DNA of 64,000 nt from NCBI GenBank assembly GCA_051872775.1, contig JBJEEE010000088.1:2762-66761 (forward strand), written 5' to 3'. The notes under the pieces are model-generated. The model was not told the DNA's origin. It saw only the letters and a program-made list of their open reading frames with translations, and searched no databases. Made by a program: the position numbers and the translations under genes. The stretch comes from Bacilli bacterium (GTDB taxonomy: Bacteria > Bacillota_I > Bacilli_A > ML615J-28 > CAG-313). This document shows positions 18,601-58,695 of this stretch, piece after piece; position 1 is the stretch's first letter, and every line of letters begins with the position of its first letter.

Positions 18601-21600
18601 ACATATTGTCCATTGATGTAACCTTTATCTTGAATGAATTGTTTTAAATCGTTTGTTGAAACGATATTAAGAGCTCTTAATAAAGCATCAACTTCGCCAA
18701 GGGCATCAACTAAATGCATAATTTCATTATCTGGATTTAATCCAGCGAATGAATCTACTGTTACTCTTTCTTCAACATTTAATGCGGCAAGTAATTGGTT
18801 AACAGTAAGAACTAACCAAGATTCTTTGTCAACTGCATAAATGTTTAATTCATTAAGCATTGTTAATACATTTTGTAATTTAACAATTTGGATTTGATCA
18901 AGTTCTTGATAGAAGAAATAATCAATTGTTCCAAATTCTACAATTTCTTTTAACATTGCTGCAACAGTTCTAATATCAGCTGATAACTTTTCACCTGTTA
19001 AATCAGATTCGAAATGTGATTCTAAGAAGGATACATCAAACTTATCAGTGGAAACTTTAGAAACACCGAATTTAGCAAGAACTGGAAGAGCAGGTTCAAT
19101 TACTCTGATTGTTCCAACTAAATCAACAATTTCTACTAATGCAAGAGCATTTTCGTTATTTGCATATTGTGCAAGAGTATAAAGTTTATCTTTAAAGAAT
19201 GATTGAACATCTTCGATTGTATTAAGGTCATTAGCCTTTAATAATGCTTCTAATCTATCAACGATTTCAATTATTGTATTTACATCATTTGACCATGTAG
19301 TAGCATTCATCATTGCAAAGTCTTCAGCTGAAACAGTGTTTTCAATCTTTAATGCTTTAAATAATTGGTTGAATCCAAGTGCAGCCCAATTGTCAATTGC
19401 AACAACAATAGTATTTAATCCAGTAGCTGTAACTAAGATATTCTTAATTAAATCATAATTAAGTTCTGGAAGTTTATTAAAGTATACATAATCAATTACA
19501 CCAATTTCTACGGCATCTTTGATTATTGATGCAAGTGATTGAATATCACTTGATAACATTTCACCAGTTAATTCTCTATTTTCAAGAGCATCAACAAGGA
19601 AGCTTAAATCAACATTTGCAATGTTAACTTTTTCAGATAATGCATAGCGAACTAGATCATCAAGGGCAGGAGACAACGCTTTAATACCGCCTAATGTTTC
19701 GATGATTTCAGCAATAACTAATACATTTTCATCAGTTACATATTGTGCAAGTGTATAATACTTGTTATTAATAAATTCAGTTAGTTCGCTAGATGAAGTA
19801 ATACTGCTTTCATCAAGTAATTCACCAATTAAACCAACAATATGAGATAGACTTTCAAAGTCTTGATCCCATTCAGCTCTATTCATAGTGATGTATTCAT
19901 TTGCACTTACATGATATTTATTTTCATCTAATTTTAGAGCTTTAAATACTTGTGTAAAGATATTTTCAAACCATTTAGCTTCTGATAAATGGAATAAATG
20001 TAATTCATTAATATTAGCTATAATATTTTGAATTGGTTCAACATTTATTACTGATAATTGTTGAGTGAAATAAATTTCTATAGCACCAAAGTCTAGAACA
20101 TTACGAACCATTTCAATAACTGTACGTAAATCATCTTTGATGTCACTACTGATATATTCATGATTATCAATAGCAGTGCTTACAAACTTCATATCAGGAA
20201 GAGCTTCATTACCAATGATTACATAATCAATTAGAGATGACAAGCCTTTTACAAGATATGGATCTATAAAGTTAATACCAATAATTGTATCAACAACAGA
20301 TAAAATATCGCTTACGTTTTCATCTGTAACATATTGTGCAGATGTATAACCTTTTTCTTTAATGAATAAATTGATATCATCATAGAATGTTAAGTTGTTA
20401 TTCTTAGCGATTTCGCCAATACTATTAACGATTGAAGCAAGAGTTGCGAAATCTTCATGCCATGCATCATTTGTCATATATGCGAAGTCTTCAGGTTGAA
20501 CTCTAACAACAGATTTAGCAAGTTCAAAGCCAATATTTGATGCAAAGGAAATCCAACTATTGTAATCTATTTCAAGAACATGTAATGTGTCAATCTTTTC
20601 AATAATAGATGAAATATATTCAAATTTAACTTCAAATGGTTGTTCTTCGTATACTTTATAAACTAAGTCTAAAGCACCGAAGTTTACACCATCAACAACG
20701 ATAGCCATTATTGTGCGAATGTCTTCAGCAAGAACACTACCACTTAATGTACCATCTTCAAGATATGGTTCAACAAATGATAAGTCATACTTTTCAGGTA
20801 CTTTACTTAATCCATATTGAGCAAGTTTAGGAAGCATTGATTGTAAAGGAACAATTGTTGTAATTGTATCTACAATTTCAGTGATACTAATTACAGCTTC
20901 ATCAGTAATATAAGTAGCTGAAGTATATCCTTTTCCACTTACAAATGAAGTTATTTCTTCTAATGATTCTAATTGCCAATAAGCTAGTAATTCTGCAAGT
21001 TGACTAACAACAGATTTAACTGTTTGAAGTGATTCAGTTGCGATTTCATCTGTAATTGTTGCAAAGTCTTCAGCTGTATATCTTACATCAAGTTTAGCAG
21101 CAGTCATTACAGTGTTTGCAATGAATTCCATCCAAGTTTCACGATTTACTTGGAATAGTTCCATTTGATCAATTTGATCAAAGATTGGATTTAATTTATC
21201 TAATTCAACCTTTTGAAGTGTCTTTGTTTCAAGATATTCAAATAGACCAAATTCAATCATTGTTTTAGCAATTTCACCAAGATTAATTACATCATGGCTT
21301 AATACTTCACGTGTTGCAATTTCTTTTATAAATTGAACATCAATATCTTTAAATAATGCAACATTTGCAAGTTTATCAACACCAAATGAAACAAAATCAT
21401 TAACAATTGGATCAATTAAATTAATAGCAAGAACGTTACTTAATGCATCTACAACACAATCAATTAATGTGTTAGTGAAGATATCATAGTTGCTATATTC
21501 TTTATTTGAAATAAATTGTTTAATACTTTCGATAGAGTATCCAGCAGGGAATAATTCATCTAAAGCACTAACTACAGCAAATAAAGCATTACCAAGTTTT

Positions 21601-24600
21601 TCAGTATCATTTGTCCATTGTTCATCTGATAATCCAGCAAAGTTTTCAGCATTATAACGTACATTGAAATCTTTAATATTTAATTTATCAAGGGCAAAGT
21701 TAACTACAAATGCAGTCCATTCACCAGCAAATTTAGCAAGAATATTTACATTTGCTAGTTGATTTGCAATATCTTTAACAACGGCTTCATTAAGATTGCC
21801 AATTGTTTCGTTCTTGTAAAGTTTTACGGCACCAAGGTCAATTAAATCAATTACAATATTTGCGAAAGTTACGATGTCGTTTGCAATTTCATCATTAGTT
21901 AACTTAGCTTCATCAACAAATCTGATATCATAACCTGCTTCATATGCTTTATCAATTCCAAAACTTAAAACTTGAGGAAGAAGAGCTTTAACTGTACCCA
22001 TATTTGCTAATTCTTTTACAGCACTAACAATATGGCGACCATTAACTTCTGTAACAATTACTTTTACATCTGCTTTTACTTCATCAAGATATTTTGTAAC
22101 ATCTCTATAAACAACTAGATGGTTGTCTGCAGCAAAGTTTTGAACAATTGTAAGTATTTGTTGAATACTTGTGAATTCATCATTCCAATCAACATTTTCA
22201 AGATCACTTGCGGAAAGTGTAAAGTCAGTTAATTTTGCAAGTGCAAATGCTTTATTGATTAGAGTGCTCATTAATTCATTTTCATGTTTTGTTACTAGAT
22301 TTAATTCGTTAATCTTACCAACTACAGCTTTAGCGGTTTCTAATAATCCGTAAACATTTTTAGATTCAACTTCAACAGTCTTATTAACTATGAAGCATGC
22401 GATACGTTCTTCAACAAGAACATTAATAATTTCTACAAGTTTATGAACGTCAGCTTGTAATTCTTCAGCTGTTAAATCATTAATAAATTGTAAATCAATT
22501 ACTTGTTTTGCTAATTGTTCTAATCCATATGAAACAACATCTGGAAGAATATTTGCAACTAATTGTGAATTTACAACTTCATCAAGAAGTCCAGCAACAA
22601 GGCTTATATTATTATCAGTGATGTAAGCTTTTAAGCCTTCAACAACGTTACTACTATTCTTAACATTGTTAATAAAATCAGTGATTTGTGCAACATTTTC
22701 AAATTCATTTACTGCTAGAATATTAAGAACAATTGAAACAACTCCTTTAATTGTTGCTACTTCATTGTCCCAATTAGTAATTGATTGTACATTGAAACTT
22801 TCAACACTAATAACATCATTCTTTGGTAGATATTTTTCTAGTGCAAATTGAACTAATTCATTTTCATATCCTTTAACAAGATTTAAGCTGAATAATTTAT
22901 CAATTATTTCATTAACAGCTGTATCTTCAGGAAGAACGATAGCTTCACCTTGGAAACTTGCTCTCCACATTTCAACAAAGTCAATATCATTGACTAAGAT
23001 TTCAGCAATTTCAGTTACAGAATATAAGTCTTCAACTAATTCTTCTCCTGTTAGACTACCTTCCCAGAAATCTTTAGAAATAACATTATTAGATACTAAT
23101 TGATTAACTACTACTTGGAATGCGATTGGAGCGATTGCTTCGATTGTATTTAATTCAAGAGCAGTATTTAATATTTCTAAAACGCGGTTTGCATTTTCTG
23201 TAGTAACAAATGAAGTTGTTAAGTAACCTTTTTCATTAATGAAGTCAATTAGTTCAGCAGTAGATTCAAGGTTATTTACTTCTAAGAATTCAATTATTTG
23301 AGTGATTAAAGCTTTTGCAGTTTCTGCTTCAACTGCCCAATCAACTCCTGCAAAATCCTCTGCAGTAACTTCTTCAATGTTATATTGTGCAAGGAATTTA
23401 CCACTAACATAATTGATAATCCATGCAAATACTTCATTTCCACATGGTTTCAACATTTCCATACCAAGCAATGCATCAAGAATATTATAAACATTCTCAA
23501 GTTTATCGGTATAAACAATTGAACCATTTACAAATATAGTTTGTAGATCCATTTCAACTAATTGACGAGCAATGTATGTTAAGCGTCTTACATCACTTGC
23601 AAGTAGTGCAGAATCTAGATTTTCTAAGTCAACAATTTCAACTAAACCTTTAAATTCTTCAGGAATAGATTTAATTACATAAGTTGACATAATATTTGGT
23701 AATAATGCTTCTACTAATTTAGAACCACTTGTTTCAACAAAATTACCATTTTCGTCTTTTTCAAGTGTACCTAAGACAATTTCAACACCACTCATTAGTT
23801 GTGAGAAAATCTCAGGTTGAGTTATGTATTCAAGATCAAGAGTAACATTACCAGCTTCATCGAATAAAACGAAGTTAGGATCTTGTAGTACATTTTCAAT
23901 TGCATGAATAAAGTTTACAAGCATTTCTTGTTCGCCATCAAAGTTGATATTGTCTAATAAACCTTTTTCAATATCTAAAATCTTTGTTGCTTTAAAGATA
24001 ATACGAATAACTCTACCTTCAACACCATCAAGAATCTTAGAATCAAAGATTGTGTTGATAATATTGATTAATGCATCTGTTTCACTATATTTTAGTGAAC
24101 CTAGTCCATTCTTAGCTACATCAAATAAACCAAGAGTTTGCGCATCTTTGATTGCTTTAACTATTTTGATAATTTCTTCTGCCATTTCTTTGTTAGAAAT
24201 ATTGTTGAAGATATCTTTAACAAGATTATCATCATCAAATTCATTTGTAATTGGAAGAAGATATTTGTTAACAGCAGGATCAATCAATGAAAGTGTTAAA
24301 TCAGAATCAACTAATTCTTCAAGAATACTTACTAGAATATCAACACCGTCTTCGTTATCAAGTAATGCAATGAAGTCAATATTCAAGTCTTTCATATTAA
24401 CTTCATCTAGAAGTACAAATTGTTTGTATATTTCTAATATGTTTTTGATTGTATCAATTTCACCAATGTTATCACCATCTGTAGTCCAGTTAACATTTTC
24501 AAAAATAGATACTTTTGATGTGCCATCAGCAGATGTTACATATAAATCATCAACGTCTAATAAATTGAATTTAATTATTGCAGCAAGAACTAAATCATTC

Positions 24601-26793: not shown

Positions 26794-29772
26794 TTAAATT
26801 ATACCAAGAAGCTCTAAAACGGACTGAGCTACTTCGGAATTATTTAATTCATCTGCTAGTTCTGGATGAGCGTTAATATCGAAGTTTTCTGGATCTTGAC
26901 TGTATTCTGCGTATACATTTTCTATGGTTGTTGCTTCTTGAGTAAAGTCTATTGCGTCAATATCAGCTGCATCTATTTCAAGATATTCAACAATCATATC
27001 TTTAGCGAGTTCGTTTTCTTGGACTTGACTTAACACATCACTTACTGAACTAATAATCGAGTCATCCGCATTATTTATATCAAAATTAGATATATTACGA
27101 TTCAAATCTATTAGTGAAGCAATACTATTTGCCACTTCTTTTAAAGTTGCTGGTTGTGTAAAATCATATTTATTAGTACCATCACTGTTTTTTGGCATAA
27201 TGTTTAGATTGTCTGGTCCAAGCATTTCTTCAAGAATACCACCAATGATTTTAGAGGCAATAACGGAGTCGCTTGCAAGAATCATTATTTGTGCAACCTT
27301 ATCTCCTGTAATTGTTTGATAACTTTCACTACCAGTAAACGATTCTTGACATTCATCAATTATGCTAAATATTACATTTATTTCATTAGCCCAACCATTT
27401 TCTTTTATTTTGGCTTTATCATCATCAGTTATTACAATTTCATATCCTGTTGAAGCGATTCCCTTCTCAATAATCGGATAAATCGCATTACCAAAAATAG
27501 ATGATTCGCCTAATGCAGTTACTAAATTTACTAGTTTTGTTTCATTTTCTTCATTTCTTTCATCTAGTAGACTACTAAAATCAAGATTTTCAATATCACC
27601 AAAATCTAGTACCGCCGTAAATACATTTGCAAGTTTTTGAGGTTCTGTATTCCAATCTATTTCATCATAATTTAATACAATACCCATCTCATCAAGTGCT
27701 TGTTTTAGACCAGTAAAATCAACGATATAATCTAAAATTTTATTTTCTTTACCAGATATTATTCTAAGACTGAAAATATTATTTAATAGTGAAGAAATGT
27801 TTTCGGAAGTAATGTTAAGTGGTTCTGTAGAATCTACTACATTCATTTCTACAAATAAATCAAATATAGAGAAAAACTTTTCTACTTCTTGTGAAAACTC
27901 ATCTTTAGATAGTGTTTTTAGAAAAGCAAAATCAAATAATTCTTTTATTTCAAGTGGCATAGAATCACCTAATAACTCATCAACATTAGCATCAAAGAAA
28001 TTAACAAGAACACCAACAAACAAAGTAGAATTTGCTATTTCATTTAATAATGGTTTAAATACATATTGATTATTGTCATCTTTTTGTAATAAGGACTCAA
28101 ACATTGGAGTTCCATTATCCATAGCTGATTTTAAATGATGATTATATAGATATAAGCCTTGTTCTAATATTTTTACAATGTTTTCTTTTTCATTAGGCCA
28201 ATCCGGAACGATTCCATTCATCAATACATCATAATCAAAGGAAGGACTATTAAGGGTTTTAAGTCCCCATTCCATTAATGATGATTCATTGCCTTCGATA
28301 ATTTTTAATTCTAATACTACTGTTAATGCACGAGATAGTGATTCAACACTTTGATCACTTGTTAAATCTAGTTTTGCATTGTTACTAATCACATCTTGTA
28401 TATTTGTATTTTTGACTAAATCTTGATATGCTATTAATATATTCTTAACATCATATCTTAATGTATCAATCATTTTTTCCGTTGTTAGTGCTTCTTTTAA
28501 TCCTGACATTTCTTCAGGTAAGCTTTCTTTCAATTGATCGGTTAATTTAGGGATGAAAATTTCACTAATTAATTGTGATTCTAATAATTTGTCAATAACG
28601 TTATTTATTGCATTTGGTAGGTTTTCGTATTCAAGTGCTGTTTCCATATGATCTAAATCTAGCACTAAACTTGAACAATCGTTAATCGCAATTTGTGCTA
28701 CTTCTAATATAGTTTTAATTTCTTTATCAATATCAAGATCTTTAATAATCGTGATGACTTCATTACTAATTGTTGGGTTTCCATTCTCATCTTTTGCATT
28801 TTCAAAAGACATGATAATTGCATCTTTAATCAATGGTGAGAATTGATATATTAGTGATGTATTTGATAAAAAAGAATTAATTAAGTCTAAGTCATTTTGA
28901 GATAATTTAGAAAAATCTACCTTATTATTGCTTTGCACATCTTTCATAATGTTATTTGCAATTGGTACAAGTGGAAGCACTAGTATAACTTCTTTAACTA
29001 AATTAGTTGTTGTTTTATCAGTTTTTATCGACATTATTTGGCCAAGATATTTGGCAGGTAAGGTTATTCCTGTTTTTTTATCTGCACCAATTTTAGTTAT
29101 TTGATATGTTTTGCTGCTACTCAATGCTCGTTGAATATCTTCATATGATATTTCAGTTTCACCAGATACTGTTTCTACTGCACCAGTATTATTTTCTAAA
29201 TACTTTACTTCATTAATCGTTACATCAGCTAGGTTTATAAAACCAAAAATTGGGAAATAAGCAACAACAAATACAATTAGAAAATTAACAAACGCAATCC
29301 CCATACCGATAAAGCGAGCTGATGTTTTTACTTTAGATTTTTTGTCATTAGGCACTTCTAAATCTTTGCTTATAAAACTCTTTAAGATTGAACTTAAAAT
29401 AAGTTTATTAATTAATGTAAAAATTGCACATACAAACAAACCAGTATAATATACTACTTGTTTCAAACCAGCAGATATTAAAGCTGTTAGTAACTCTACT
29501 GATTCTTCACTAAATGTAAATTGTTCATTTGTAAAAGAACTAATAATATAATCAACTATAGATATTCCATCAATTCTTATATTTGTCATTGCTTTTGATA
29601 TTGGGTTTAATAGTAAAAGTAAAATGATGAAAGGAATTAAGAATGAAATTAAATTTACTAGTTTTTTTCTCCATCCCGCAATAAAGCCGGATAAAAGATG
29701 GCATATTAAAGCAAATAAAACGATTATATCAAGCACAACCAAGGCTGTTTTAATTATACTTATCAGATTCAT
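26794..29772 (-). CDS. Large (~992 aa) membrane-anchored acidic protein, a paralogue of the giant protein (shared N-terminal membrane module)
   Basis: The track ORF starts at 29829. An in-frame ATG at 29770-29772 (MNLISIIK...) is preceded by a perfect GGAGG at 6-nt spacing. The N-terminus VLFALICHLLSGFIAGWRKKLVNLISFLIPFIILLLLL ... KKSKVKTSARFIGMGIAFVNFLIVFVVAYFPIFGF parallels that of the giant protein. The remainder is rich in D, E, N, I and L. Confidence 0.75.
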   Translation of the reverse strand: MNLISIIKTALVVLDIIVLFALICHLLSGFIAGWRKKLVNLISFLIPFIILLLLLNPISKAMTNIRIDGISIVDYIISSFTNEQFTFSEESVELLTALISAGLKQVVYYTGLFVCAIFTLINKLILSSILKSFISKDLEVPNDKKSKVKTSARFIGMGIAFVNFLIVFVVAYFPIFGFINLADVTINEVKYLENNTGAVETVSGETEISYEDIQRALSSSKTYQITKIGADKKTGITLPAKYLGQIMSIKTDKTTTNLVKEVILVLPLVPIANNIMKDVQSNNKVDFSKLSQNDLDLINSFLSNTSLIYQFSPLIKDAIIMSFENAKDENGNPTISNEVITIIKDLDIDKEIKTILEVAQIAINDCSSLVLDLDHMETALEYENLPNAINNVIDKLLESQLISEIFIPKLTDQLKESLPEEMSGLKEALTTEKMIDTLRYDVKNILIAYQDLVKNTNIQDVISNNAKLDLTSDQSVESLSRALTVVLELKIIEGNESSLMEWGLKTLNSPSFDYDVLMNGIVPDWPNEKENIVKILEQGLYLYNHHLKSAMDNGTPMFESLLQKDDNNQYVFKPLLNEIANSTLFVGVLVNFFDANVDELLGDSMPLEIKELFDFAFLKTLSKDEFSQEVEKFFSIFDLFVEMNVVDSTEPLNITSENISSLLNNIFSLRIISGKENKILDYIVDFTGLKQALDEMGIVLNYDEIDWNTEPQKLANVFTAVLDFGDIENLDFSSLLDERNEENETKLVNLVTALGESSIFGNAIYPIIEKGIASTGYEIVITDDDKAKIKENGWANEINVIFSIIDECQESFTGSESYQTITGDKVAQIMILASDSVIASKIIGGILEEMLGPDNLNIMPKNSDGTNKYDFTQPATLKEVANSIASLIDLNRNISNFDINNADDSIISSVSDVLSQVQENELAKDMIVEYLEIDAADIDAIDFTQEATTIENVYAEYSQDPENFDINAHPELADELNNSEVAQSVLELLGII

Positions 29773-29839
29773 ATTTTCCTCCATAATGTGTATTACTATT
29801 ATTATAACTTGATTAGTGTTTTTTTTCAAGTATTTCTAC

Positions 29840-31084
29840 TTATTCTTTCTTACATTTAATTCCTATTTTACATAATTTCCCCATTATATCATCATATCCT
29901 CTAAATATGTATTCTGCTTGATTAATAATAATCTGTTTCCCTGATATTACTCCCGCAACAATCATAGCAAATCCGCATCTTAAATCGTTTGCTTGTACCA
30001 TTCCACTGATTAATGGTGATGGATTAATGGTAATTAAACCTTGATTCATTTCGATACTTGCTTTCATTTTACTTAGTTCTTTTATATGAGAGTTACGAGA
30101 TGGATATATGGTTTCATTTATCTTTGATGTATCATTTCCATTTAACAAAACTGTTGATAATATTGGTTGTAAATCAGTAGGGAAATAAGGATATGGGCCT
30201 GTTGATATATTGATGTTTTTTATATTTTCTGGAGACTTAATCTCTATAGAATCCTTTAAAATGGTAGTTTCTCCACCTAGTTTATTAATCACTTCTATAA
30301 CGTTTTCTAAATGACTAACATTAACTTTATTAATTTTAATCTGAGAATTAGGTTTTGCCATTGCAAGAAACATATAGCTTCCTGCTTCTATACGATCAGG
30401 CATAATCGAGTATGTTGTTTTATGCAGTTCTTTTACTCCTTCAATCACGATAGAACGCTTATCAATAAACTGTATTTTAGCACCCATCGATTGCAAGAAA
30501 TGAATTACGTCTATTACCTCTGGTTCAATTGCAATATTAGATAGAGTTGTTTTCCCTTTTATCAAGACCGTTGATAGTATAGCATTGATGGTACCTCCTA
30601 CTGTTACTGTACTGAATGTATAGTTTATTGGGCGAAGTTTTCTTTTTTTAAAATATATTTTTTCTTTTTCTGTTATATCTAATCCCATTTGTTTATATAA
30701 TTTTAAGTGAAAATCAATTGGTCTTTTTCCGAAATTACATCCTCCAGGATAAAGAGTTGCAAAGTTATTTTTACGATGTATTAAGGGGGAGATGAGATAA
30801 TATGATGCTCTTAGTTTTGATACAAAGCAACTATCTAAATCCTTTTTAATTCTGTTAGCTCTAATTACTAGTTTACTTTCCACATAGTTATAGTTTACAC
30901 TTACTCCCAAATCATCTAAAATTCTGATCATACTTATAACATCAGTAATGAGAGGAACATTATATAGAGTTATCTCTTCTTTTGATAGAAGTGAAGCGGC
31001 TATTATTGGTAAACAAGCGTTTTTAGAACCACTTATTTCTATTTCACCTTTTATGATACTTGGGCATTTAATTTTTATTTTCAA
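29840..31084 (-). CDS. murA: UDP-N-acetylglucosamine 1-carboxyvinyltransferase
   Basis: The protein is 414 aa. The N-terminus KIKCPSIIKGEIEISGSKNACLPIIAASLL matches the MurA N-terminus (GAKNAVLPI). It has a TTG start with an AAAGGA RBS. Confidence 0.8.
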   Translation of the reverse strand: MKIKIKCPSIIKGEIEISGSKNACLPIIAASLLSKEEITLYNVPLITDVISMIRILDDLGVSVNYNYVESKLVIRANRIKKDLDSCFVSKLRASYYLISPLIHRKNNFATLYPGGCNFGKRPIDFHLKLYKQMGLDITEKEKIYFKKRKLRPINYTFSTVTVGGTINAILSTVLIKGKTTLSNIAIEPEVIDVIHFLQSMGAKIQFIDKRSIVIEGVKELHKTTYSIMPDRIEAGSYMFLAMAKPNSQIKINKVNVSHLENVIEVINKLGGETTILKDSIEIKSPENIKNINISTGPYPYFPTDLQPILSTVLLNGNDTSKINETIYPSRNSHIKELSKMKASIEMNQGLITINPSPLISGMVQANDLRCGFAMIVAGVISGKQIIINQAEYIFRGYDDIMGKLCKIGIKCKKE

Positions 31085-34655: not shown

Positions 34656-37600
34656 TTATTCTTGATAGCCCCAAACTACAGTGATATCAGTTGAATTCCA
34701 ACCATCAACCCAACCATCTGGTTTAGATGCGGCGGCACATTTAATTGTTTTTAATTCCGTACAACCAACAAAGATAGCTCTTGCAATTGTAGTTACACTT
34801 GATGGAATTACGATATCAACTAAATTTGTACATCCGTTAAAAGCATTTAGATTAATAGTTGTAATTGTATTAGGCATATTAATCTTAGTAACTGTTGTAG
34901 CATTAACAAAGGCATTAGAAGCAATACTTACTACAGTGTATTCGACTTCATTAACGTTAACAGTTTGAGGTATAGTTACTTCGTTTGCGCTACCATTATA
35001 GTTAACAACTTCTGCTTGGTTTGTATCAGCAGCTCCATCTACACCTTTAATTGTTTCAACAGTGATATACATATCATCAATGACTACGAATTCACCACTT
35101 ACTTTACGACTACCTACTAATTGATCAAAGTTTTGTGCCCATGTAGCTGGTAATGTATATGATACTGTTCCATCTGAACCAGCAGTAGCAGTAATTGCGT
35201 TAGTTAATAATACCGCTAATGATAAGTTAGCAAAAGCGTTAGAACCAACATTTACAACTGTTTCAGGAATATAAACAAAGTTAAGACGTGCACATCCTTC
35301 AAAGGCTTTTGAACCAATGGTTTCTACTAATTCAGGAATAATTAATTTAGTAAATGAAGATGACTGACAATTGTAGAATGCGGAAGCACCAATTACTTCA
35401 AGAGTTGAAGGAAGAATAAAATTAGCAATACTTCTACATCCTTCAAAGGCACTTTCACCAATCTCAACTAAGTTAGCTGGGAAGTTTACATCAACTAAGG
35501 AAGTACATGATTTAAAGATACCTTTTGGAAGAACTGTAATTAAACTTGGGATAGTTACTGCTGTAACACTTGCACATCCTTCAAAAGCACTTTCCCCAAT
35601 GTATGTGATTTTTTCACTTAATGGAAGTTCCGTAACACAAGCACAACCATTGAAGGCACTCTCTTCAATTACTTCTATATTATCTACATTATTTACAGAT
35701 ACTAACGAACTGCATTTTTCAAACATTCTAGTTGGAATTGTCTTTGTTGATGAAGGAAGAGTAACTGTTTGAAGACGAGAGCAATTATAGAATAATCCTT
35801 CAGGAAGTTCTGTAATACTATTAGAAATTACAACTTCTTTTAGATTATTTGCACCACTAAAGGCATATGGATTAATAGTTTCGACAGAACTTGCAATTGT
35901 GTAACTTTCTTTTGAATCACCGGCAACATATAGCATTAATACCTTACCATCTTTAGATAAAAGAGCACCGTTTTCCAATTTGTATTTTGGATGATCATCA
36001 GAAATTGATAATGTTTGAAGTGATGACCAATTACGGAATGCACCTACGCCGATAGTTTCTACTGCTTGAGGAATACTAATACTTTTTACTTTGTTACAAT
36101 CTGCAAATGCATAGTCACCAATATATTTGATTGATGATGGAAGAGACAACTCTTGAATACCTGTGCAACCTGAGAATGCTCGTTTACCAATAGATTCTAA
36201 TTTATTTGATTCAGTATCAAATACAACAGTAGTTAATGATTGACAATTGATAAAGGCATTATCACCAATTGATTCTAATTCAGCGTTGAAAGTAATACTT
36301 GTTAAATATACAACATTGATAAAGGCAGCATCATGAATCTTAGTTCCTTTTAACACTGTTACTTCAAGCGTCTCTGGATTTTCTCCACCTAAAATACAAT
36401 CAAATGATGGATTATCAGCTTCTTCTTTATTTCCTACATAAGGAATAGTAAGTGATTGTAAATTAGTACAACTTACAATTGCTTGTTCTGAAATTTCAAG
36501 AACAGTTGCAGGAATAACTAAATTAGTTAATGAACGACAATCCGTAAATGCACCAGCATGAATATATTTAACTTCAGCAGGAATTACAAAACTTGATACA
36601 GTACTTGCGGATAAATATTGAACAAGTTCTGACATATCCTTCGTATATAATACTAAAGATGAGTATTTTTTTGAACCTTCAGTGATTTCGTTTACTACAA
36701 ATTTATAACTTGGATTATCTTCACTTATGATTACTTTCTTTAAAGCACGGCAATTATCAAATACTTTATCACCAATCGAAGTAACATTGGAGAAATCTGC
36801 TGATGTTAATGCTGTACATCCCGCAAAAGTACGATCTTCAATTGTAGTTACACCTGTTGGAATAACAACTGAAGTAAGTTTAGCACAATTCATAAATGCA
36901 GCTTCGCCAAGCGATTCAAGATTTGTAGGTAATACAAAACCAGCAAGTTTTGAACATCCCTTGAAAGCATATGATCCTATTCTTTTAACATTGTTAGAGA
37001 TGTTAACAGTAATTATTGAAGAACAATCAACAAAAGCAAAATTAGGAATATCATAATCGCCTGCAATTGTTATTTGCGTTAAGCTTCTTGGTACATTGTT
37101 ACTATTATTGCTTGAATTTGTAGAACCAAAGATATATCCAAATAAAGTAGTTTTATTAAATACATATTCACCTTGTTGGTCTTTTACTAGTTCGCCTGTT
37201 CCTTTATCAACTGTAAAACCAGTACCGATAAATGGTAAACTTATACTCTTAAGTCCACTGCATCCTTCAAAGGCACCAGCACCGATACTCTTTACAGTAG
37301 TTGGAACAACTATATTGGCAAGGCTTGTGCATCTTGCAAAAGCTGAGCCTTCAATAATTTCAACAGATGGTGATAATAATTGAGAAACTATGCTATCTGT
37401 TAATGAACTACATCCTGCAAAAGCATTTTGTGAAATCTTAGTTAAATTAGTAGGAATATTATTAATCGTAGCAAGTTTTGCACAACCTGAGAAAGCATCA
37501 TTTCCAATATTATTTATTGATGAAGGAAGTGTAATTGTAGTTACAAACTCTAAATCTTTAAAAGCTTTTTCAACTATCTTTTCTCCACCAGTTATTTCTA

Positions 37601-38528
37601 TTCTTGTTAGTGTTTCAGGAATAGTTCCAAATACACTCATAAACACTGTATTACTATTCATTGAAGTACCTACAAACGGAACGGAAATTGATTTTAAACT
37701 AGTACATCCAATAAAAGCATTTAAGCCAATTTCTTTTACAGTATTTGGAATTACAAGGTTTTCTATACTATCTGCAGCAAAGAAAGCACTACTATGAATT
37801 TTGCTAACACTTGAATCTACAGTGAAATCTGAAATATAAGTTTTTAATACAACGATGATTTCTTTTGTTCCATCTTCATTATTTAAGTAAAGAACACCAT
37901 TGTCGCAACTAAATAATGTCGAATTAGTTGCTATTTCTAATTCATCTAATTGATCACAACCAGTAAATACACCTTCACCAAATGATTGGATACTTGATGG
38001 GAAATAAAGTGTGCTTATAGCTGTATCCGCAAAAGCTTTATTGCCGATTGTTTCAATACCTTCTTTTAAATCGATTTCTTCAAGTGAAGAACAACCCGAA
38101 AAAGCATTATCTTCAATGGTCTTTACTGATGAAGGAATCACTACTTTTTCTAATCTCATGCAATCTTCAAAAGCACCATAACTTATTTTTTCTAATGTAT
38201 TAGGAAGTTTAACTTCCTTTAGATTAACACAAGATTTAAATGAATAACGGGCAATATTTTTAATTTTACTACCACTCTCAAATGATACTTTAGTAATAGT
38301 TGAATTGTTTTCAAAGGCACCATTACCAATTAAGGTTATTTCTTTTGGTATTACAACTTCTTTATCAGTACCATTATAAACTAATAAAGTTTTTCCCGTT
38401 GCATCTGTTTGAAATGTAGGTATAACTGTTTTTTTATTAACAACTGTAACTAACAAAATTACTGCTACCGCAATTATTAATATGATAACTCCCCATGCAA
38501 TCAAACTTTTTACTGTTTTTTTATTCAT
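34656..38528 (-). CDS. BspA-type leucine-rich-repeat (LRR_5) surface protein with an N-terminal signal anchor
   Basis: The protein is 1,290 aa. An N-terminal TM segment (LIAWGVIILIIAVAVILLV) is followed by dozens of repeats of the form IPxSVxxIGxxAFxGCxSLxxI. There is no LPxTG motif. The RBS is AAGGAG. Confidence 0.8.
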   Translation of the reverse strand: MNKKTVKSLIAWGVIILIIAVAVILLVTVVNKKTVIPTFQTDATGKTLLVYNGTDKEVVIPKEITLIGNGAFENNSTITKVSFESGSKIKNIARYSFKSCVNLKEVKLPNTLEKISYGAFEDCMRLEKVVIPSSVKTIEDNAFSGCSSLEEIDLKEGIETIGNKAFADTAISTLYFPSSIQSFGEGVFTGCDQLDELEIATNSTLFSCDNGVLYLNNEDGTKEIIVVLKTYISDFTVDSSVSKIHSSAFFAADSIENLVIPNTVKEIGLNAFIGCTSLKSISVPFVGTSMNSNTVFMSVFGTIPETLTRIEITGGEKIVEKAFKDLEFVTTITLPSSINNIGNDAFSGCAKLATINNIPTNLTKISQNAFAGCSSLTDSIVSQLLSPSVEIIEGSAFARCTSLANIVVPTTVKSIGAGAFEGCSGLKSISLPFIGTGFTVDKGTGELVKDQQGEYVFNKTTLFGYIFGSTNSSNNSNNVPRSLTQITIAGDYDIPNFAFVDCSSIITVNISNNVKRIGSYAFKGCSKLAGFVLPTNLESLGEAAFMNCAKLTSVVIPTGVTTIEDRTFAGCTALTSADFSNVTSIGDKVFDNCRALKKVIISEDNPSYKFVVNEITEGSKKYSSLVLYTKDMSELVQYLSASTVSSFVIPAEVKYIHAGAFTDCRSLTNLVIPATVLEISEQAIVSCTNLQSLTIPYVGNKEEADNPSFDCILGGENPETLEVTVLKGTKIHDAAFINVVYLTSITFNAELESIGDNAFINCQSLTTVVFDTESNKLESIGKRAFSGCTGIQELSLPSSIKYIGDYAFADCNKVKSISIPQAVETIGVGAFRNWSSLQTLSISDDHPKYKLENGALLSKDGKVLMLYVAGDSKESYTIASSVETINPYAFSGANNLKEVVISNSITELPEGLFYNCSRLQTVTLPSSTKTIPTRMFEKCSSLVSVNNVDNIEVIEESAFNGCACVTELPLSEKITYIGESAFEGCASVTAVTIPSLITVLPKGIFKSCTSLVDVNFPANLVEIGESAFEGCRSIANFILPSTLEVIGASAFYNCQSSSFTKLIIPELVETIGSKAFEGCARLNFVYIPETVVNVGSNAFANLSLAVLLTNAITATAGSDGTVSYTLPATWAQNFDQLVGSRKVSGEFVVIDDMYITVETIKGVDGAADTNQAEVVNYNGSANEVTIPQTVNVNEVEYTVVSIASNAFVNATTVTKINMPNTITTINLNAFNGCTNLVDIVIPSSVTTIARAIFVGCTELKTIKCAAASKPDGWVDGWNSTDITVVWGYQE

Positions 38529-43720: not shown

Positions 43721-44176
43721 TTATTTTGATATTATAGAACAACTTTTTTGGATTAAGTTTGCTTCTTTATTTATTTTAATAATTGTATTTTTGATAACTT
43801 TTATAAGTTGTAAATTATATATAAGATTTAATAATCCTACCTTAATTATTCTTTTATGTTTTTTTATCTTACTGCTAAGATATTCTAAAAGTTTGTACAT
43901 ACTTTTTTTTAAAAACATTATATATATGCATATACCTACAATTACAAGTAAAATAAAATATATAGGTATATAACCATATGCCAAATTATAGCTAAATATA
44001 TATGCTATCAATATTTGTATTATACAAAATATAATTTCAATAATGATTCTTATGCTTTTTTTGTTAATGAAATGATTAGAAAAGTAAAGAACACAATCAT
44101 ATGTTGATATTATAAAAATACCATAGAATACTAAATATACTAAAACATTTATTTCTTCTCTTAATGTATGAATCAT
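43721..44176 (-). CDS. yabQ: Sporulation membrane protein YabQ homologue
   Basis: The protein is 151 aa and hydrophobic. The motif YGYIPIYFILLVIVGICIYIMFLKKSMYKLLEYL resembles YabQ (FRFYIFLAVLCGYATYQSLLKRIYLKLL). It overlaps the yabP stop in an ATGA arrangement. Confidence 0.5.
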   Translation of the reverse strand: MIHTLREEINVLVYLVFYGIFIISTYDCVLYFSNHFINKKSIRIIIEIIFCIIQILIAYIFSYNLAYGYIPIYFILLVIVGICIYIMFLKKSMYKLLEYLSSKIKKHKRIIKVGLLNLIYNLQLIKVIKNTIIKINKEANLIQKSCSIISK

Positions 44177-55127: not shown

Positions 55128-55155
55128 AAAATAGGAAACATGTGTTTCCTATTTT
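55128..55155 (-). terminator. ddl terminator overlapping the stop codon
   Basis: AAATAGGAAACA-TG-TGTTTCCTATTT is a 12-bp perfect stem. On the minus strand it is followed by TTTTAATTTAT. Confidence 0.7.
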
Positions 55156-56288
55156 GTAAGTTTAGTTCCCTTTTGTGATAATACACTTGATTTAAAGGAT
55201 TTAATATATCTCATTTGTTGATTTTTTGTCACAATCGCGTTTTTAATTAAGATATCAATTAGTTGAGTAAAACTTATATCTAGTTTATCAAATAAATAAA
55301 ATGCTAGTGAACCAGGAATTGTATTAATTTCATTTAAATATAGTAAGTTTGTTTGCTCATCATATAAGAAATCAATTCTCACAACTCCGCTTAATCTGAA
55401 TAATTGATATGCCTTAATACCAACTGTTTTAATCAATTTTTCTAATTCAGGAGGTAGAATTGCGGGGATAATGCGATTTGATACATCACTCATTTTATCC
55501 ATATTTTCATATTTATCTTTAAACGATAAAATATCATTTGTTGGTTTTACTTCTTCAACTAAAGAAGGTATGATGCGATTAATGTCTTTAAGAATAGCAA
55601 GATTATATTCTTTATATTTAGTCAATTTCTTTTCAACAATAATCTGTTCATCATATTTAAAAGCTTCTTCAATTCCTTTTCGTAGTTCATCTTTGTTATC
55701 AGCACACATAATACCTATACTTGAACCCAAACATGAAGGCTTAACAATAACAGGATAATCTAATCTAGTTTCAATTTCATTACATTTAAGGGTAAAATCA
55801 TCATCTATACTCATTTTAACAAATGGTAATATTTTTATATCCGTTAATGATAACAGTTCTTTTGTATATATTTTATCTTGAAGAATTGCAGAGGCGGATA
55901 CTGATGCATTTGTATGTACTCCTCCTAGCGTTTCAAGGAATCCACTTATTGTTCCATCCTCTACCCCTTCACCATGGACAACTGGAATAAAAACATCTAT
56001 TGGTGTAGCTTTAGGTCGCGAAAATACTCCTTTGTAATATACATTGTTGTTTTCACCAAATAGGGTTACTGTATTACATTTAGAAAAATTACCTGATATA
56101 TATGTATTGATATCATTTAGCTCATTTCCTACTAGCCATTCTTGATCATGATTAATATAAAAAATCGTTACATTATATTTATCCTTATCAATAGCATGAT
56201 ATACTTGTAATCCTGATAATATTGAAATGTCATGTTCGACACTTCTACCTCCAATTATTATACCTACATTTAATTTTGTACTTTTCAT
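55149..56288 (-). CDS. ddl: D-alanine--D-alanine ligase
   Basis: MKSTKLNVGIIIGGRSVEHDISILSG is the canonical Ddl N-terminus. The C-terminal part has the ATP-grasp fold. Confidence 0.85.
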   Translation of the reverse strand: MKSTKLNVGIIIGGRSVEHDISILSGLQVYHAIDKDKYNVTIFYINHDQEWLVGNELNDINTYISGNFSKCNTVTLFGENNNVYYKGVFSRPKATPIDVFIPVVHGEGVEDGTISGFLETLGGVHTNASVSASAILQDKIYTKELLSLTDIKILPFVKMSIDDDFTLKCNEIETRLDYPVIVKPSCLGSSIGIMCADNKDELRKGIEEAFKYDEQIIVEKKLTKYKEYNLAILKDINRIIPSLVEEVKPTNDILSFKDKYENMDKMSDVSNRIIPAILPPELEKLIKTVGIKAYQLFRLSGVVRIDFLYDEQTNLLYLNEINTIPGSLAFYLFDKLDISFTQLIDILIKNAIVTKNQQMRYIKSFKSSVLSQKGTKLTK

Positions 56289-56292
56289 TTCT

Positions 56293-57831
56293 CTACCTTT
56301 CTAAGAAGTTGTCTGGTAAATCATTTTCAATTAAAAGACTAACTTCTTCATTATAATTATTTTTAAATGTTTGAAATGCATCATTAAAACTATTAAAAAT
56401 CTTATATTTTTGATGGTGTTCATTAAATACCTTAACATAATAAACAATGACTTTGTTTCTAATAAGATATATATCATCAAACTGACTAATTAGTTTTAGG
56501 GCGATTTCTTCATTAATTTCTTTTTCTTTTGTCCCTCCATCTACTATACCAGGAGTTATAATTACTTTTTTCGTTCTTATTTCTTTAAATAAATTAATTG
56601 CTGAAGAAAATCCTGCAAGATTAGAGTTGTAACTATCATCATATATATGTATATTATTTATTTCTTGATATTCAAGACGATGAGGAACTTGTGGTACTGA
56701 TTTTATTCTATTAATAAATTCTTGATCAGTTATATCAATATTATATTTTTTTAGAGCTTGAATAATTCCATAACAAATCAGTATATTTATTGCATTATGT
56801 TCTCCTAGTAGCGGGGTTTCAATTAATAGTTCTTGATTATTGTTTACAATGATAAAACTGGTTTTACCACAACTTGTATGTACGTCTTTTATGTAGTAGT
56901 TATCACTTGGTTCATACCCTACACCAATAATATCATTAATACTTAATATATTTAAATTCTTTAAGTACTTATTACTAGTATTTACTACTAGTGAACTTTC
57001 ATATGGCTGGTTAGATATTATCTCAAGTTTTGCATTTAACACCCCTTCAATTGATTTAAATGTTGATAAATGTTGTGGACCAATCTCTGTAATAACCGAT
57101 ATATTAGGTGGAAATTCTTTAACCATTTGCCTTATTTCCCCCTTTTTAAAAGCACCCATTTCCATAATAAAAACTTCCGTTGTTGTTTTTAGACTTTCGT
57201 TTATTGTTTTTGTTATTCCCATTAAAGTATTATATGATTTGGGGGTAGCTAGACATATATAGTGATTAGATAAAAGATGATAGAGAATGTTTTTAGTGGT
57301 TGTTTTACCATAACTTCCAGTAATCGCTATTTTAACCATATTTTGGTTTTCGTAATACTTCTTAGTTGCTTTTTTTAAATAGTGTTTTTTTATCATTATT
57401 TCTATTGGTTCATTAATTATACTACTTGAAAGTAGAATAAAAGGTAAAAAGAATATCTCAATTATAAATAGAATTAAGTGGACGTTTCGTATTAAAATAA
57501 AAGGAATAAGGACTAAAATGATTGTTGTTAATATTAGTCTGATGATACGAGGTGTATACTTTAATTTTATTATATATTTAGTCGGTTTTATCAGTATAAA
57601 TATAGTTAAAATCATTATGATTAGTGAGTGATATATATTATTAAAAAGAATTAAAATTAAACAAATATAAAGTATATCGGTATATACTTTTTTAAAATAG
57701 TATGTTGGTAGTATTTTAACAAACTTTTTATAATCATAATGCTCTTGTTGATAAATATTTAAAATATAGTATTCTAAATAGCAAAAAAATACTACTAGAC
57801 ATATTGCTTCAAATACACTAAATAAAATCAT
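56293..57831 (-). CDS. murF: MurF-like UDP-MurNAc-tripeptide--D-Ala-D-Ala ligase with an atypical polytopic membrane N-terminal extension
   Basis: Residues 1 to about 150 form 4-5 hydrophobic helices. After that come the Mur-ligase central and C-terminal domains: GSYGKTTTKN, VITEIGPQHLSTFKSIEGVLNAKLEI, TPLLGEHNAINILICYGIIQAL and IYDDSYNSNLAGFSSAINLF, all MurF-like. The canonical MurF N-domain is absent. Its start overlaps the hydrolase stop in an ATGA arrangement. Confidence 0.7.
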   Translation of the reverse strand: MILFSVFEAICLVVFFCYLEYYILNIYQQEHYDYKKFVKILPTYYFKKVYTDILYICLILILFNNIYHSLIIMILTIFILIKPTKYIIKLKYTPRIIRLILTTIILVLIPFILIRNVHLILFIIEIFFLPFILLSSSIINEPIEIMIKKHYLKKATKKYYENQNMVKIAITGSYGKTTTKNILYHLLSNHYICLATPKSYNTLMGITKTINESLKTTTEVFIMEMGAFKKGEIRQMVKEFPPNISVITEIGPQHLSTFKSIEGVLNAKLEIISNQPYESSLVVNTSNKYLKNLNILSINDIIGVGYEPSDNYYIKDVHTSCGKTSFIIVNNNQELLIETPLLGEHNAINILICYGIIQALKKYNIDITDQEFINRIKSVPQVPHRLEYQEINNIHIYDDSYNSNLAGFSSAINLFKEIRTKKVIITPGIVDGGTKEKEINEEIALKLISQFDDIYLIRNKVIVYYVKVFNEHHQKYKIFNSFNDAFQTFKNNYNEEVSLLIENDLPDNFLER

Positions 57832-58583
57832 TTAATCACACCAAGATATTTACCAATCACTATATGGAAGTACTTTTTCTTTTCTAAATATGGAAAGTGA
57901 CCACAATTTTCAAAAGTCACTAAACCACTATTCTTGATGGTTTTACTCATATATAAGGCATCTTTATATGGAGTTTCTTTATCATCTTTTCCCCATATGA
58001 TTAAGGTCTCAACGTTTATTTTTTTTAAATATTTTCGTAAATCCTCTTTTATTACTTTAGACATTGTCCCTTTCATAATGTTACTAGCATTGATAAAGTC
58101 ATTACTTCCATTTACTTTTAATAGTTGATTGTATTTGGTTGCATCTTTTTTAAACTTATAATATTTTTTTAAACATTTGTATCTTATTATACTAACCATT
58201 TGTTTTATCGTTTTTCGCTTCTTTATTCCCGCACTATCCACTAGTATTAATTTATTGACTAAATCATTATGATTAGAAACATACTTAATTGCAATTCTTC
58301 CACCAAAAGAATGTCCGATGATTATTGGTTTTTCAATTTGAAGTTCTGTTATAAATAGTTCCAAGAATTTTACGTATTGGGTTAAATTGTATGAGTTTTG
58401 GGGCTGATCACTTTGACCAAATCCAGGAAGATCAATTGCGAAAATTGTATAGTTATCACCTAAATAGTCAATTAAATAATCAAATGTATGATAGTTAAGC
58501 CCCCATCCATGTAATAATATTAAAGGTCTACCTCTTCCATATATTTGATAATTAATTTTCATATTATCATAGTTATATATCAT
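57828..58583 (-). CDS. Alpha/beta-fold hydrolase
   Basis: The oxyanion hole HGWGLN and the nucleophile elbow GHSFGG are present. The protein is 251 aa. Confidence 0.75.
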   Translation of the reverse strand: MIYNYDNMKINYQIYGRGRPLILLHGWGLNYHTFDYLIDYLGDNYTIFAIDLPGFGQSDQPQNSYNLTQYVKFLELFITELQIEKPIIIGHSFGGRIAIKYVSNHNDLVNKLILVDSAGIKKRKTIKQMVSIIRYKCLKKYYKFKKDATKYNQLLKVNGSNDFINASNIMKGTMSKVIKEDLRKYLKKINVETLIIWGKDDKETPYKDALYMSKTIKNSGLVTFENCGHFPYLEKKKYFHIVIGKYLGVIK

Positions 58584-58649
58584 TTTATCACTCTTTTCTA
58601 CTATTACATTTTATTCAATAATTTTGTTTTTAGTCTTTTTTTTCAAACA

Positions 58650-58693
58650 CAATAAAAAAACTACTAACTATTTCTACAAATAGTTAGTAGTTT
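58650..58693 (-). terminator. suf operon terminator
   Basis: AAAACTACTAACTATTT-CTAC-AAATAGTTAGTAGTTTT is a 17-bp perfect stem. On the minus strand it is followed by a U-rich tract. Confidence 0.7.
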
Positions 58694-58695
58694 TA

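Follow-up and report, generated by a model that had tools for sequence, protein, structure and literature searches.

The enzymes MurC to MurF are viewed in textbooks as soluble cytoplasmic proteins, and to our knowledge all solved MurF structures are those of soluble proteins. Here we describe a MurF-type protein of a Bacilli bacterium that begins with a membrane domain. Its gene lies in a 64-kb stretch of a metagenome-assembled genome (MAG), hereafter called the window, within which the genome content was judged, and forms the middle of a three-gene cassette with an alpha/beta hydrolase gene and ddl. We propose that this gene very probably encodes the functional MurF of the organism, the UDP-MurNAc-tripeptide:D-Ala-D-Ala ligase, in a membrane-integrated form.

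In a statement of PMC9448923 that cites Blair et al. 2018, the MurF of Helicobacter pylori is assigned to the inner membrane and reported to carry four N-terminal transmembrane (TM) domains, and it is listed with those proteins of the inner membrane for which an interaction with Csd5, CcmA and Csd7 is reported (PMC9448923; see PMC7012605). Its gene, HP0740, comprises 1485 bp, which is within the size range of the membrane-type family described here. Studies in Campylobacter jejuni demonstrated that ddl (Cj0798c), the alpha/beta-fold hydrolase gene Cj0796c and murF (Cj0795c) are neighbours; the deletion of Cj0796c failed, it was considered possibly essential, and the authors suspected a role in peptidoglycan (PMC5530802). 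Both Cj0795c and Cj0798c are present in an essential-gene list. A literature search on membrane-anchored or TM-bearing MurF, and on murF together with dcw (division and cell wall) and hydrolase, found no dedicated study, and a recent study on Erysipelotrichales with MurF trees leaves the membrane domain unmentioned. The original prediction regarded a membrane-tethered MurF as atypical and considered a lineage-specific organisation of the late cytoplasmic steps. The protein indeed differs from the canonical enzyme, but the passage on H. pylori in PMC9448923 already reports a MurF with TM domains, and the lineage-specific view has to be given up since we found the same three-gene cassette in many phyla. 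The protein belongs to a membrane-integrated MurF class which has already been glimpsed in H. pylori and is barely characterised, and it is not an oddity of one lineage.

As had been predicted, the ligase body, made up of the central and C-terminal domains, resembles MurF both in its sequence and in its predicted fold. Pfam Mur_ligase_M (PF08245) was found at residues 170-355 (E 2e-37), and TIGR01143 (murF) is the best NCBIfam family with 192.8 bits, compared to 81.4 for murD and at most 66 for murE and murC. The match extends from residue 151 to residue 501, corresponding to profile positions 60-403 of 418, and leaves the N-domain part of the profile (positions 1-59) unmatched. TIGR01143 is also the top family for five relatives from other phyla (200-249 bits). 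In a sequence search of the PDB the top seven matches were MurF, with 3zl8 from Thermotoga maritima as the best (E 4e-25), followed by the proteins of E. coli, S. pneumoniae, A. baumannii and P. aeruginosa; the alignments start at residues ~151-154 of the window protein. The AlphaFold2 (AF2) model of the whole protein has a mean predicted local distance difference test score (pLDDT) of 92.2 and a predicted template modelling score (pTM) of 0.86, and its top ten Foldseek matches were MurF as well (4qf5, 3zl8, 4cvm and 1gg4 among them; E 7e-24 to 2e-19). Moreover, a profile of twelve cross-phylum membrane-type MurF members was aligned to E. coli MurF by hhalign with a probability of 100% (E 1.4e-40), limited to E. 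coli residues 96-393. Structures of MurT appeared among the PDB sequence and Foldseek matches, but far more weakly (E 8e-8 vs 4e-25 for MurF). A PgsB/CapB-type or cyanophycin-synthetase-like ligase was considered and rejected: there was no meaningful match to such enzymes among the 17 NCBIfam families at E <= 0.1, and no PgsB/CapB occurred among the PDB matches.

The individual motifs give the same picture. The P-loop, which was said to be displaced to about residue 172, is found at T171-GSYGKTTTK, ~60 residues later than in canonical MurF, where the E. coli equivalent TGSSGKTS follows residue 96; it is invariant in all alignments and aligns with E. coli and T. maritima MurF. In the central domain E224, H254 and K268 match conserved positions of canonical MurF. 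In the C-terminal domain the motif DDSYNSN (398-404) aligns with DDSYNAN of E. coli MurF, and TPGIVDGG, containing the [DE]xG motif, with its VGDMAELG motif.

In front of this ligase body, a five-helix membrane domain replaces domain 1 of MurF. A Pfam scan of the window protein found no match to the soluble N-terminal domain PF01225, and E. coli MurF residues 1-95 are without counterpart. By Kyte-Doolittle analysis the segments 1-27, 49-90 and 92-141 are strongly hydrophobic, and AF2 places helices at 2-29, 34-47, 49-63, 66-81, 94-113 and 118-161, the last of which extends beyond the membrane and forms a stalk that joins the first ligase strand. Modelled alone, the N-domain reached a pLDDT of 95.9. 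This agrees with the polytopic N-terminus that had been claimed. Residues 1-140 gave no match in the Pfam or NCBIfam libraries, and a Foldseek search of the N-domain against the PDB revealed no similar structure (best E-value 3.7).

The N-domain is a real and conserved domain. Full-length homologues of ~500-520 aa that match the window protein from residue 1 onwards number more than 100. Five residues (Q28, Y32, T93, R95, P142) never vary in the alignment of close homologues (97 sequences), and another five (Q29, H31, R98, P130, E144) hardly do; in the cross-phylum alignment, made of the best 80 relatives of the genome scan described below and the window protein (81 sequences), Q28, Y32, L90, T93, R95, R98, P142 and E144 are at least 90% conserved. 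These residues lie in the motifs FQQxxY (28-32), KLKxTxRxxR (88-98) and NxPxE (140-144). On average, two sequences share 23% identity over the N-domain and 44% over the ligase body, thus the N-domain evolves faster while the set of polar residues and the hydropathy pattern are kept. An N-domain profile, built from the close subfamily only, recovered 1045 representative clusters among 1.84 billion, in which the domain always starts at residue ~1 and complete proteins have ~480-545 aa; overall, the Mur ligases that begin with this domain range from ~480 to ~570 aa. No other architecture with this domain was found among these 1045 clusters. The conservation of the whole 512-aa architecture in hundreds of proteins is far beyond chance.

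Hydropathy and charge across the family fit a single topology. Hydrophobic blocks are found at 4-17, 55-78 and 102-136, the last two being helical hairpins, and the mean number of Lys and Arg per loop is 3.6 for 25-50, 6.5 for 82-98 and 5.9 for 139-170, with almost none in the two short hairpin turns. According to the positive-inside rule, this distribution places the N-terminus outside and the long loops together with the ligase in the cytoplasm. In this predicted topology the conserved polar motifs would be located at the cytoplasmic face of the membrane, at the end of helix 1, before helix 4 and at the exit of helix 5.

The operon that had been predicted was confirmed by reading both junctions directly. 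The hydrolase/murF junction reads ATTAAATGATT, where the ATG of murF overlaps the TGA of the hydrolase gene (ATGA), and the murF/ddl junction reads AGGTAG AGAA ATG with a 4-nt gap. Hairpins are present on both flanks (Table 1; terminator and promoter calls are consensus matches only), hence hydrolase-murF-ddl looks like one transcription unit, in which murF is probably co-transcribed and translationally coupled with its two neighbours.

A genome scan with one genome per GTDB species yielded at least 596 relatives, the best 80 of which were taken as genome loci and surveyed together with 80 metagenome loci (160 loci). These loci come from Bacillota, Bacteroidota, Alphaproteobacteria, Synergistota, Chloroflexota and other groups. 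Among the best 80 genome-scan relatives are Clostridia, Erysipelotrichaceae, Bacilli, Bacteroidales, Synergistaceae, Chloroflexota, Poribacteria, Balneolales, Haloplasma and Thiomargarita, and the close relatives of the window MAG carry the label Acholeplasmatales. Using phmmer with the window hydrolase and Ddl as queries against all open reading frames (ORFs) of the 80 genome loci, we found the three genes arranged as hydrolase-murF-ddl, mostly directly abutting one another, in ~73 of them. The same order occurs in most of the 80 metagenome loci, a few of which are ordered ddl-hydrolase-murF. A search with a low-GC locus of the latter type (L060) led to Rickettsiales and Alphaproteobacteria MAGs that carry the family. 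The cassette appears to be both ancient and widespread.

The position of the cassette in dcw clusters is informative. In Poribacteria (L022) the order is rsmH, PBP (penicillin-binding protein), murE, hydrolase, a UPF0236 ORF, membrane-type murF, ddl, mraY, murD, ftsW, murG and murC. The same insertion point between murE and mraY was found in the metagenome loci L113, L121 (Candidatus Methylomirabilis), L131, L135 and L137 and also in L165, a contig of Ca. Methylomirabilis oxyfera with the order mraZ-rsmH-ftsL-ftsI-murE-hydrolase-murF-ddl-mraY-murD-ftsW-murG-murC-murB-ftsQ-ftsA and 4-nt overlaps at both cassette junctions. In E. coli, canonical murF occupies this murE-mraY slot. A second MurF-like ORF was not found in these dcw clusters, and there is no room for one. 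Since the cassette fills the slot with no canonical murF there, the housekeeping enzyme for the addition of D-Ala-D-Ala is most likely the membrane-type protein. At other loci the cassette is often preceded by cdaA-cdaR-glmM or lies close to an Asp/Glu racemase gene; these associations, like those with histidine kinase/response regulator pairs and an RluD-like synthase, are loose ones.

Several loci show particular arrangements. The UPF0236 (transposase-like) ORF of Poribacteria (L022 8466..9785) splits the hydrolase gene from murF within the dcw cluster. In Ca. M. oxyfera (L165 11704..13014 and 19292..21071) ddl has moved into the cassette beside murF and is absent between murB and ftsQ, its usual proteobacterial place. 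In 8-9 loci, including L009 and L010, the genes directly 5' of the cassette encode a histidine kinase and a response regulator of the OmpR type; L009 and L010 (Erysipelotrichaceae/Solobacterium-type) have no adjacent ddl. Both hydrolase and ddl are missing next to membrane-type murF in L069 and L039 as well as in L112 (8841..11635), L162 (8881..11692) and L054 (8749..11566); in the latter three, which are probably Bacteroidota/Balneolales-like, murF is divergently paired with a gene for a ~334-aa NTP_transferase. A MAG labelled Haloplasma contractile (L015 1582..7595) carries cdaA-cdaR(YbbR)-glmM-hydrolase-membrane murF-ddl. The order of this species is listed as wall-less (PMC12786226), and it is worth re-examining either the Haloplasma label or the assumption that the order lacks a wall.

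The hydrolase partner belongs to Pfam Abhydrolase_1 (E 2.7e-32). Its best NCBIfam family is the EstV family lipase (NF058580) with 136.8 bits, which is below the 300-bit equivalog cutoff, and the match spans positions 8-228 of 230. EstV is the top or near-top family for the cassette hydrolases of four other phyla too, with 112-143 bits overall; relatives in the PDB are generic alpha/beta-hydrolases only. The HGWG oxyanion motif and the triad Ser92-Asp201-His229 are at least 90% conserved in 77 cassette homologues and the protein is without a signal peptide, from which an active cytoplasmic enzyme is predicted. The cassette hydrolase would accordingly be a catalytically intact alpha/beta hydrolase of the cytoplasm, similar to EstV and Cj0796c. 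Its tight coupling to murF, the intact triad and the report that it is possibly essential in C. jejuni speak for a genuine catalytic function in the MurF step.

The product of the downstream gene matches TIGR01205 with 248.2 bits (cutoff 245.65) and both Dala_Dala_lig Pfam domains. K259-Y260 of this Ddl align with K215-Y216 of E. coli DdlB, and S189 aligns with S150; all are at least 90% conserved in 74 cassette Ddls. We take these DdlB positions to be associated with D-Ala-D-Ala rather than depsipeptide (D-Ala-D-Lac) synthesis, and judged by its residues the protein appears to be a D-Ala-D-Ala-type Ddl.

How could a MurF work with its domain 1 replaced? In the predicted structure the conserved residues Gln28/Tyr32, Thr93/Arg95/Arg98 and Pro142/Glu144 would sit at the membrane-cytoplasm interface, above the ligase cleft. 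This would be the place where domain 1 binds UDP in soluble MurF, and the stalk helix would bring the P-loop there. As the residues are placed where domain 1 covers the cleft, we infer that they hold the UDP-diphosphate end of the substrate, so that the interface may have taken over the binding of the nucleotide and diphosphate from domain 1. With Ddl supplying the dipeptide D-Ala-D-Ala, UDP-MurNAc-pentapeptide would then be made at the membrane surface, beside its consumer MraY. The hydrolase may be an obligatory accessory enzyme; an esterase- or peptidase-type editing or substrate-preparing step is our guess for its part.

Some observations weigh against the assignment as housekeeping MurF. 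In every member examined TIGR01143 scores below its cutoff of 288.6 bits (192.8 for the window protein, 200-249 for the relatives); the shortfall corresponds to the missing N-domain. Mur_ligase_C (PF02875) reaches 24.7 bits at residues 384-494, below the Pfam gathering score of 28.4, and is recorded in many homologues. E. coli MurF remains unaligned over its last ~55 residues and the family ends in an invariant ENDLPD motif of its own (502-507), for which reason the dipeptide pocket could differ. In Pseudalkalibacillus (Bacillaceae) the cassette adjoins a class B PBP gene, away from other mur genes, and could be an extra copy. The genome is seen here through the 64-kb window only, and a second, canonical murF may be present elsewhere. 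The biochemical record of the family consists of the H. pylori interaction studies only. Moreover, the TM region of H. pylori MurF is equated with our N-domain from synteny, size and the EstV-family match of the hydrolase, and the correspondence is a presumed one.

Part of these observations would also suit a MurF-derived paralogue, which the original prediction had put forward as an alternative and which would ligate D-Ala-D-Ala or another Ddl product onto a different carboxylate acceptor, such as a non-peptidoglycan component of the membrane or envelope, while a soluble MurF is encoded elsewhere. Scores below the curated murF cutoffs, diverged C-terminal motifs, the Pseudalkalibacillus cassette outside any mur cluster and the view of the genome through a single window are compatible with it, and the two-component systems 5' of the cassette in 8-9 loci recall regulated cell-wall remodelling cassettes. 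However, a paralogue would hardly take the place of murF, flanked by murE and mraY, in the complete dcw clusters that two phyla, Poribacteria and Methylomirabilota, possess and in which no other MurF-like gene accompanies it. By sequence as well as by fold, no other family comes nearly as close as MurF; the linked Ddl has the K-Y residues, and the membrane-type family is very widespread and occurs in housekeeping contexts (glmM, glutamate racemase). In addition, PMC9448923 treats the TM-bearing H. pylori protein as the peptidoglycan precursor synthase MurF. We therefore consider a paralogue with a different substrate improbable, with single lineages such as Pseudalkalibacillus as conceivable exceptions. 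The hydrophobic N-terminus as an annotation artefact, with the true start at the internal M165, can be dismissed almost with certainty. In favour of it, M165 precedes the P-loop strand by only a few residues, but the protein sequence encoded by the 150 codons upstream of it is retained, with invariant polar residues, in Bacillota as well as in Alphaproteobacteria and Methylomirabilota, the region folds confidently in AF2 (pLDDT ~96), and the N-domain is common to the 1045 representative proteins. A start at M165 would also delete the linker helix that aligns with canonical MurF from residue ~151, and the upstream ATG overlaps the preceding stop codon, as in many relatives.

The loss of the soluble UDP-binding domain could also be understood if the enzyme acted at a later stage and added D-Ala-D-Ala to undecaprenyl-PP-MurNAc-tripeptide after MraY. 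Conserved K88, R95 and R98 belong to a loop on the cytoplasmic side of the membrane interface, where Arg and Lys would bind the lipid pyrophosphate. A precedent is MurT, a Mur-ligase-fold enzyme acting on lipid II that was found among the structural matches. The same residues would bind a UDP diphosphate equally well, though, and the gene order keeps the enzyme 5' of mraY, like canonical murF. The preferred substrate of MraY in characterised systems is the pentapeptide, which also speaks against it. We regard such a late step as very improbable. A broader proposal, which we consider unlikely, is that the N-domain and the hydrolase constitute an uncharacterised membrane module present in thousands of species, in which MurF docks to MraY or uses a lipid-linked tripeptide and the hydrolase carries out an unrecognised, probably essential reaction of precursor synthesis. 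A membrane-integrated housekeeping MurF that uses the UDP-linked tripeptide remains our preferred explanation.

The features of the cassette and its surroundings are compiled in Table 1.

Table 1. Location of the cassette, its domains and flanking signals in the window.
Feature	Position	Strand	Basis
Alpha/beta hydrolase gene, 251 aa, first gene of the operon	57828..58583	(-)	Pfam Abhydrolase_1
Membrane-type murF, 512 aa, ATG start, middle gene	56293..57831	(-)	ORF call
MurF N-terminal membrane domain, residues 1-150	57382..57831	(-)	hydropathy, AF2, conservation
Stalk/linker helix, residues 151-165, continuing the last membrane helix into the ligase body	57337..57381	(-)	AF2 (helix 129-161), start of the TIGR01143 and PDB alignments
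Central (ATPase) domain, residues 166-360	56752..57336	(-)	Pfam Mur_ligase_M
ATP-binding P-loop, T171-GSYGKTTTK-180, followed by N181	57292..57321	(-)	invariant in all alignments
Mur ligase C-terminal domain, residues 361-512 and stop codon	56293..56751	(-)	weak Mur_ligase_C, structure alignments
ddl, 379 aa, third gene of the operon	55149..56288	(-)	TIGR01205 and both Dala_Dala_lig Pfam domains
Terminator-like hairpin closing the upstream suf operon (after sufB)	58694-58657, within 58618..58694	(-)	consensus scan
Promoter-like site 5' of the hydrolase gene	58646-58618	(-)	consensus scan
Terminator-like hairpin at the end of ddl, before tilS	55155-55128	(-)	consensus scan
MurA (UDP-GlcNAc 1-carboxyvinyltransferase), context gene	29840..31084	(-)	TIGR01072

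The MurA encoded in the window exceeds the equivalog cutoff of TIGR01072 (400.8 bits vs 392.7), and the window also encodes a YabQ spore-cortex biosynthesis protein (43721..44176 (-); TIGR02893, 48.9 bits vs a cutoff of 32). Together they indicate that the organism makes peptidoglycan, and a wall-less mollicute with orphan MurF and Ddl was dropped as an explanation. The two genes suggest a walled, possibly spore-related lineage. Besides these, the window contains a giant ORF of 5630 aa (9639..26531 (-)), neither half of which matched Pfam, and next to it an ORF of 1011 aa (26794..29829 (-)) without a match in Pfam or NCBIfam; the two may code for large proteins of the cell surface that belong to no known family. 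A BspA-type leucine-rich-repeat protein of 1290 aa with ten LRR_5 stretches is encoded at 34656..38528 (-), and LRR_5 proteins are found directly 3' of the cassette in an Acholeplasmatales-labelled relative (L081 13821..16976).

Our data add to the earlier glimpse in H. pylori the spread over many phyla, a structurally unmatched N-domain with its own set of motifs, the company of hydrolase and Ddl, and the substitution of canonical murF in dcw clusters. The membrane MurF class spans gut Bacillota, Bacteroidales, Alphaproteobacteria, Methylomirabilota and Poribacteria and, by inference, pathogens of the Campylobacterota. It is an under-studied but experimentally tractable variant of an essential step that is an antibiotic target. 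If the N-domain binds UDP or couples MurF to MraY, the hand-off of the precursor from the cytoplasm to the membrane would have to be pictured differently, and MurF inhibitors built on contacts with domain 1 would be inapplicable to these organisms. The co-conserved intact hydrolase, possibly essential in C. jejuni, is a concrete and testable lead for peptidoglycan synthesis; should its reaction be essential, the enzyme would offer a new target for antibiotics against Campylobacterota, gut Clostridia and Bacteroidales. Annotation is affected as well. The family falls below the NCBI murF cutoff and its naming in RefSeq is inconsistent, either 'MurF' or, often, 'Mur ligase family protein' only.

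Among the known systems, the canonical soluble MurF (EC 6.3.2.10; COG0770; E. coli b0086; structures 1GG4, 3ZL8, 4QF5, 4CVM and 2AM1) is the closest. It shares with the membrane-type protein the central ATPase and C-terminal domains, the P-loop, the Glu, His and Lys positions, the DDxYNxN motif, the neighbourhood of Ddl and, in some phyla, the dcw slot. The canonical chains in the PDB have 427-475 aa and contain domain 1 (E. coli 1-95), whereas the window protein has a five-helix membrane domain of ~150 residues in its place, an ENDLPD tail and a TIGR01143 score below the cutoff. Canonical murF is also without an alpha/beta hydrolase partner, while the membrane-type gene is nearly always paired with one. 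MurT of the MurT/GatD complex (6GS2, 6H5E) resembles our protein in the Mur-ligase central domain and in serving a membrane step of peptidoglycan synthesis, but it lacks a TM domain, has a DUF1727 C-terminal domain and GatD as a partner, and takes part in amidation and not in the addition of a dipeptide.

EstV owes its 'lipase' label to the hydrolysis of short-chain esters in vitro. Over its full length this family V lipase/esterase (HP0739) is matched by the window hydrolase, and it shares the Ser-Asp-His triad and HGWG, but the cassette hydrolases, with their 112-143 bits, stay far below the 300-bit equivalog cutoff. This H. pylori family is nevertheless the best match of the window hydrolase, and H. 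pylori MurF is like the window protein in having multiple N-terminal TM helices before the ligase body. The window organism is a low-GC Bacilli-type MAG and not a member of the Campylobacterota, and the context of the Csd5/CcmA shape complex is absent here. Finally, the gene order in C. jejuni is ddl-...-hydrolase-murF, compared to hydrolase-murF-ddl in our locus.

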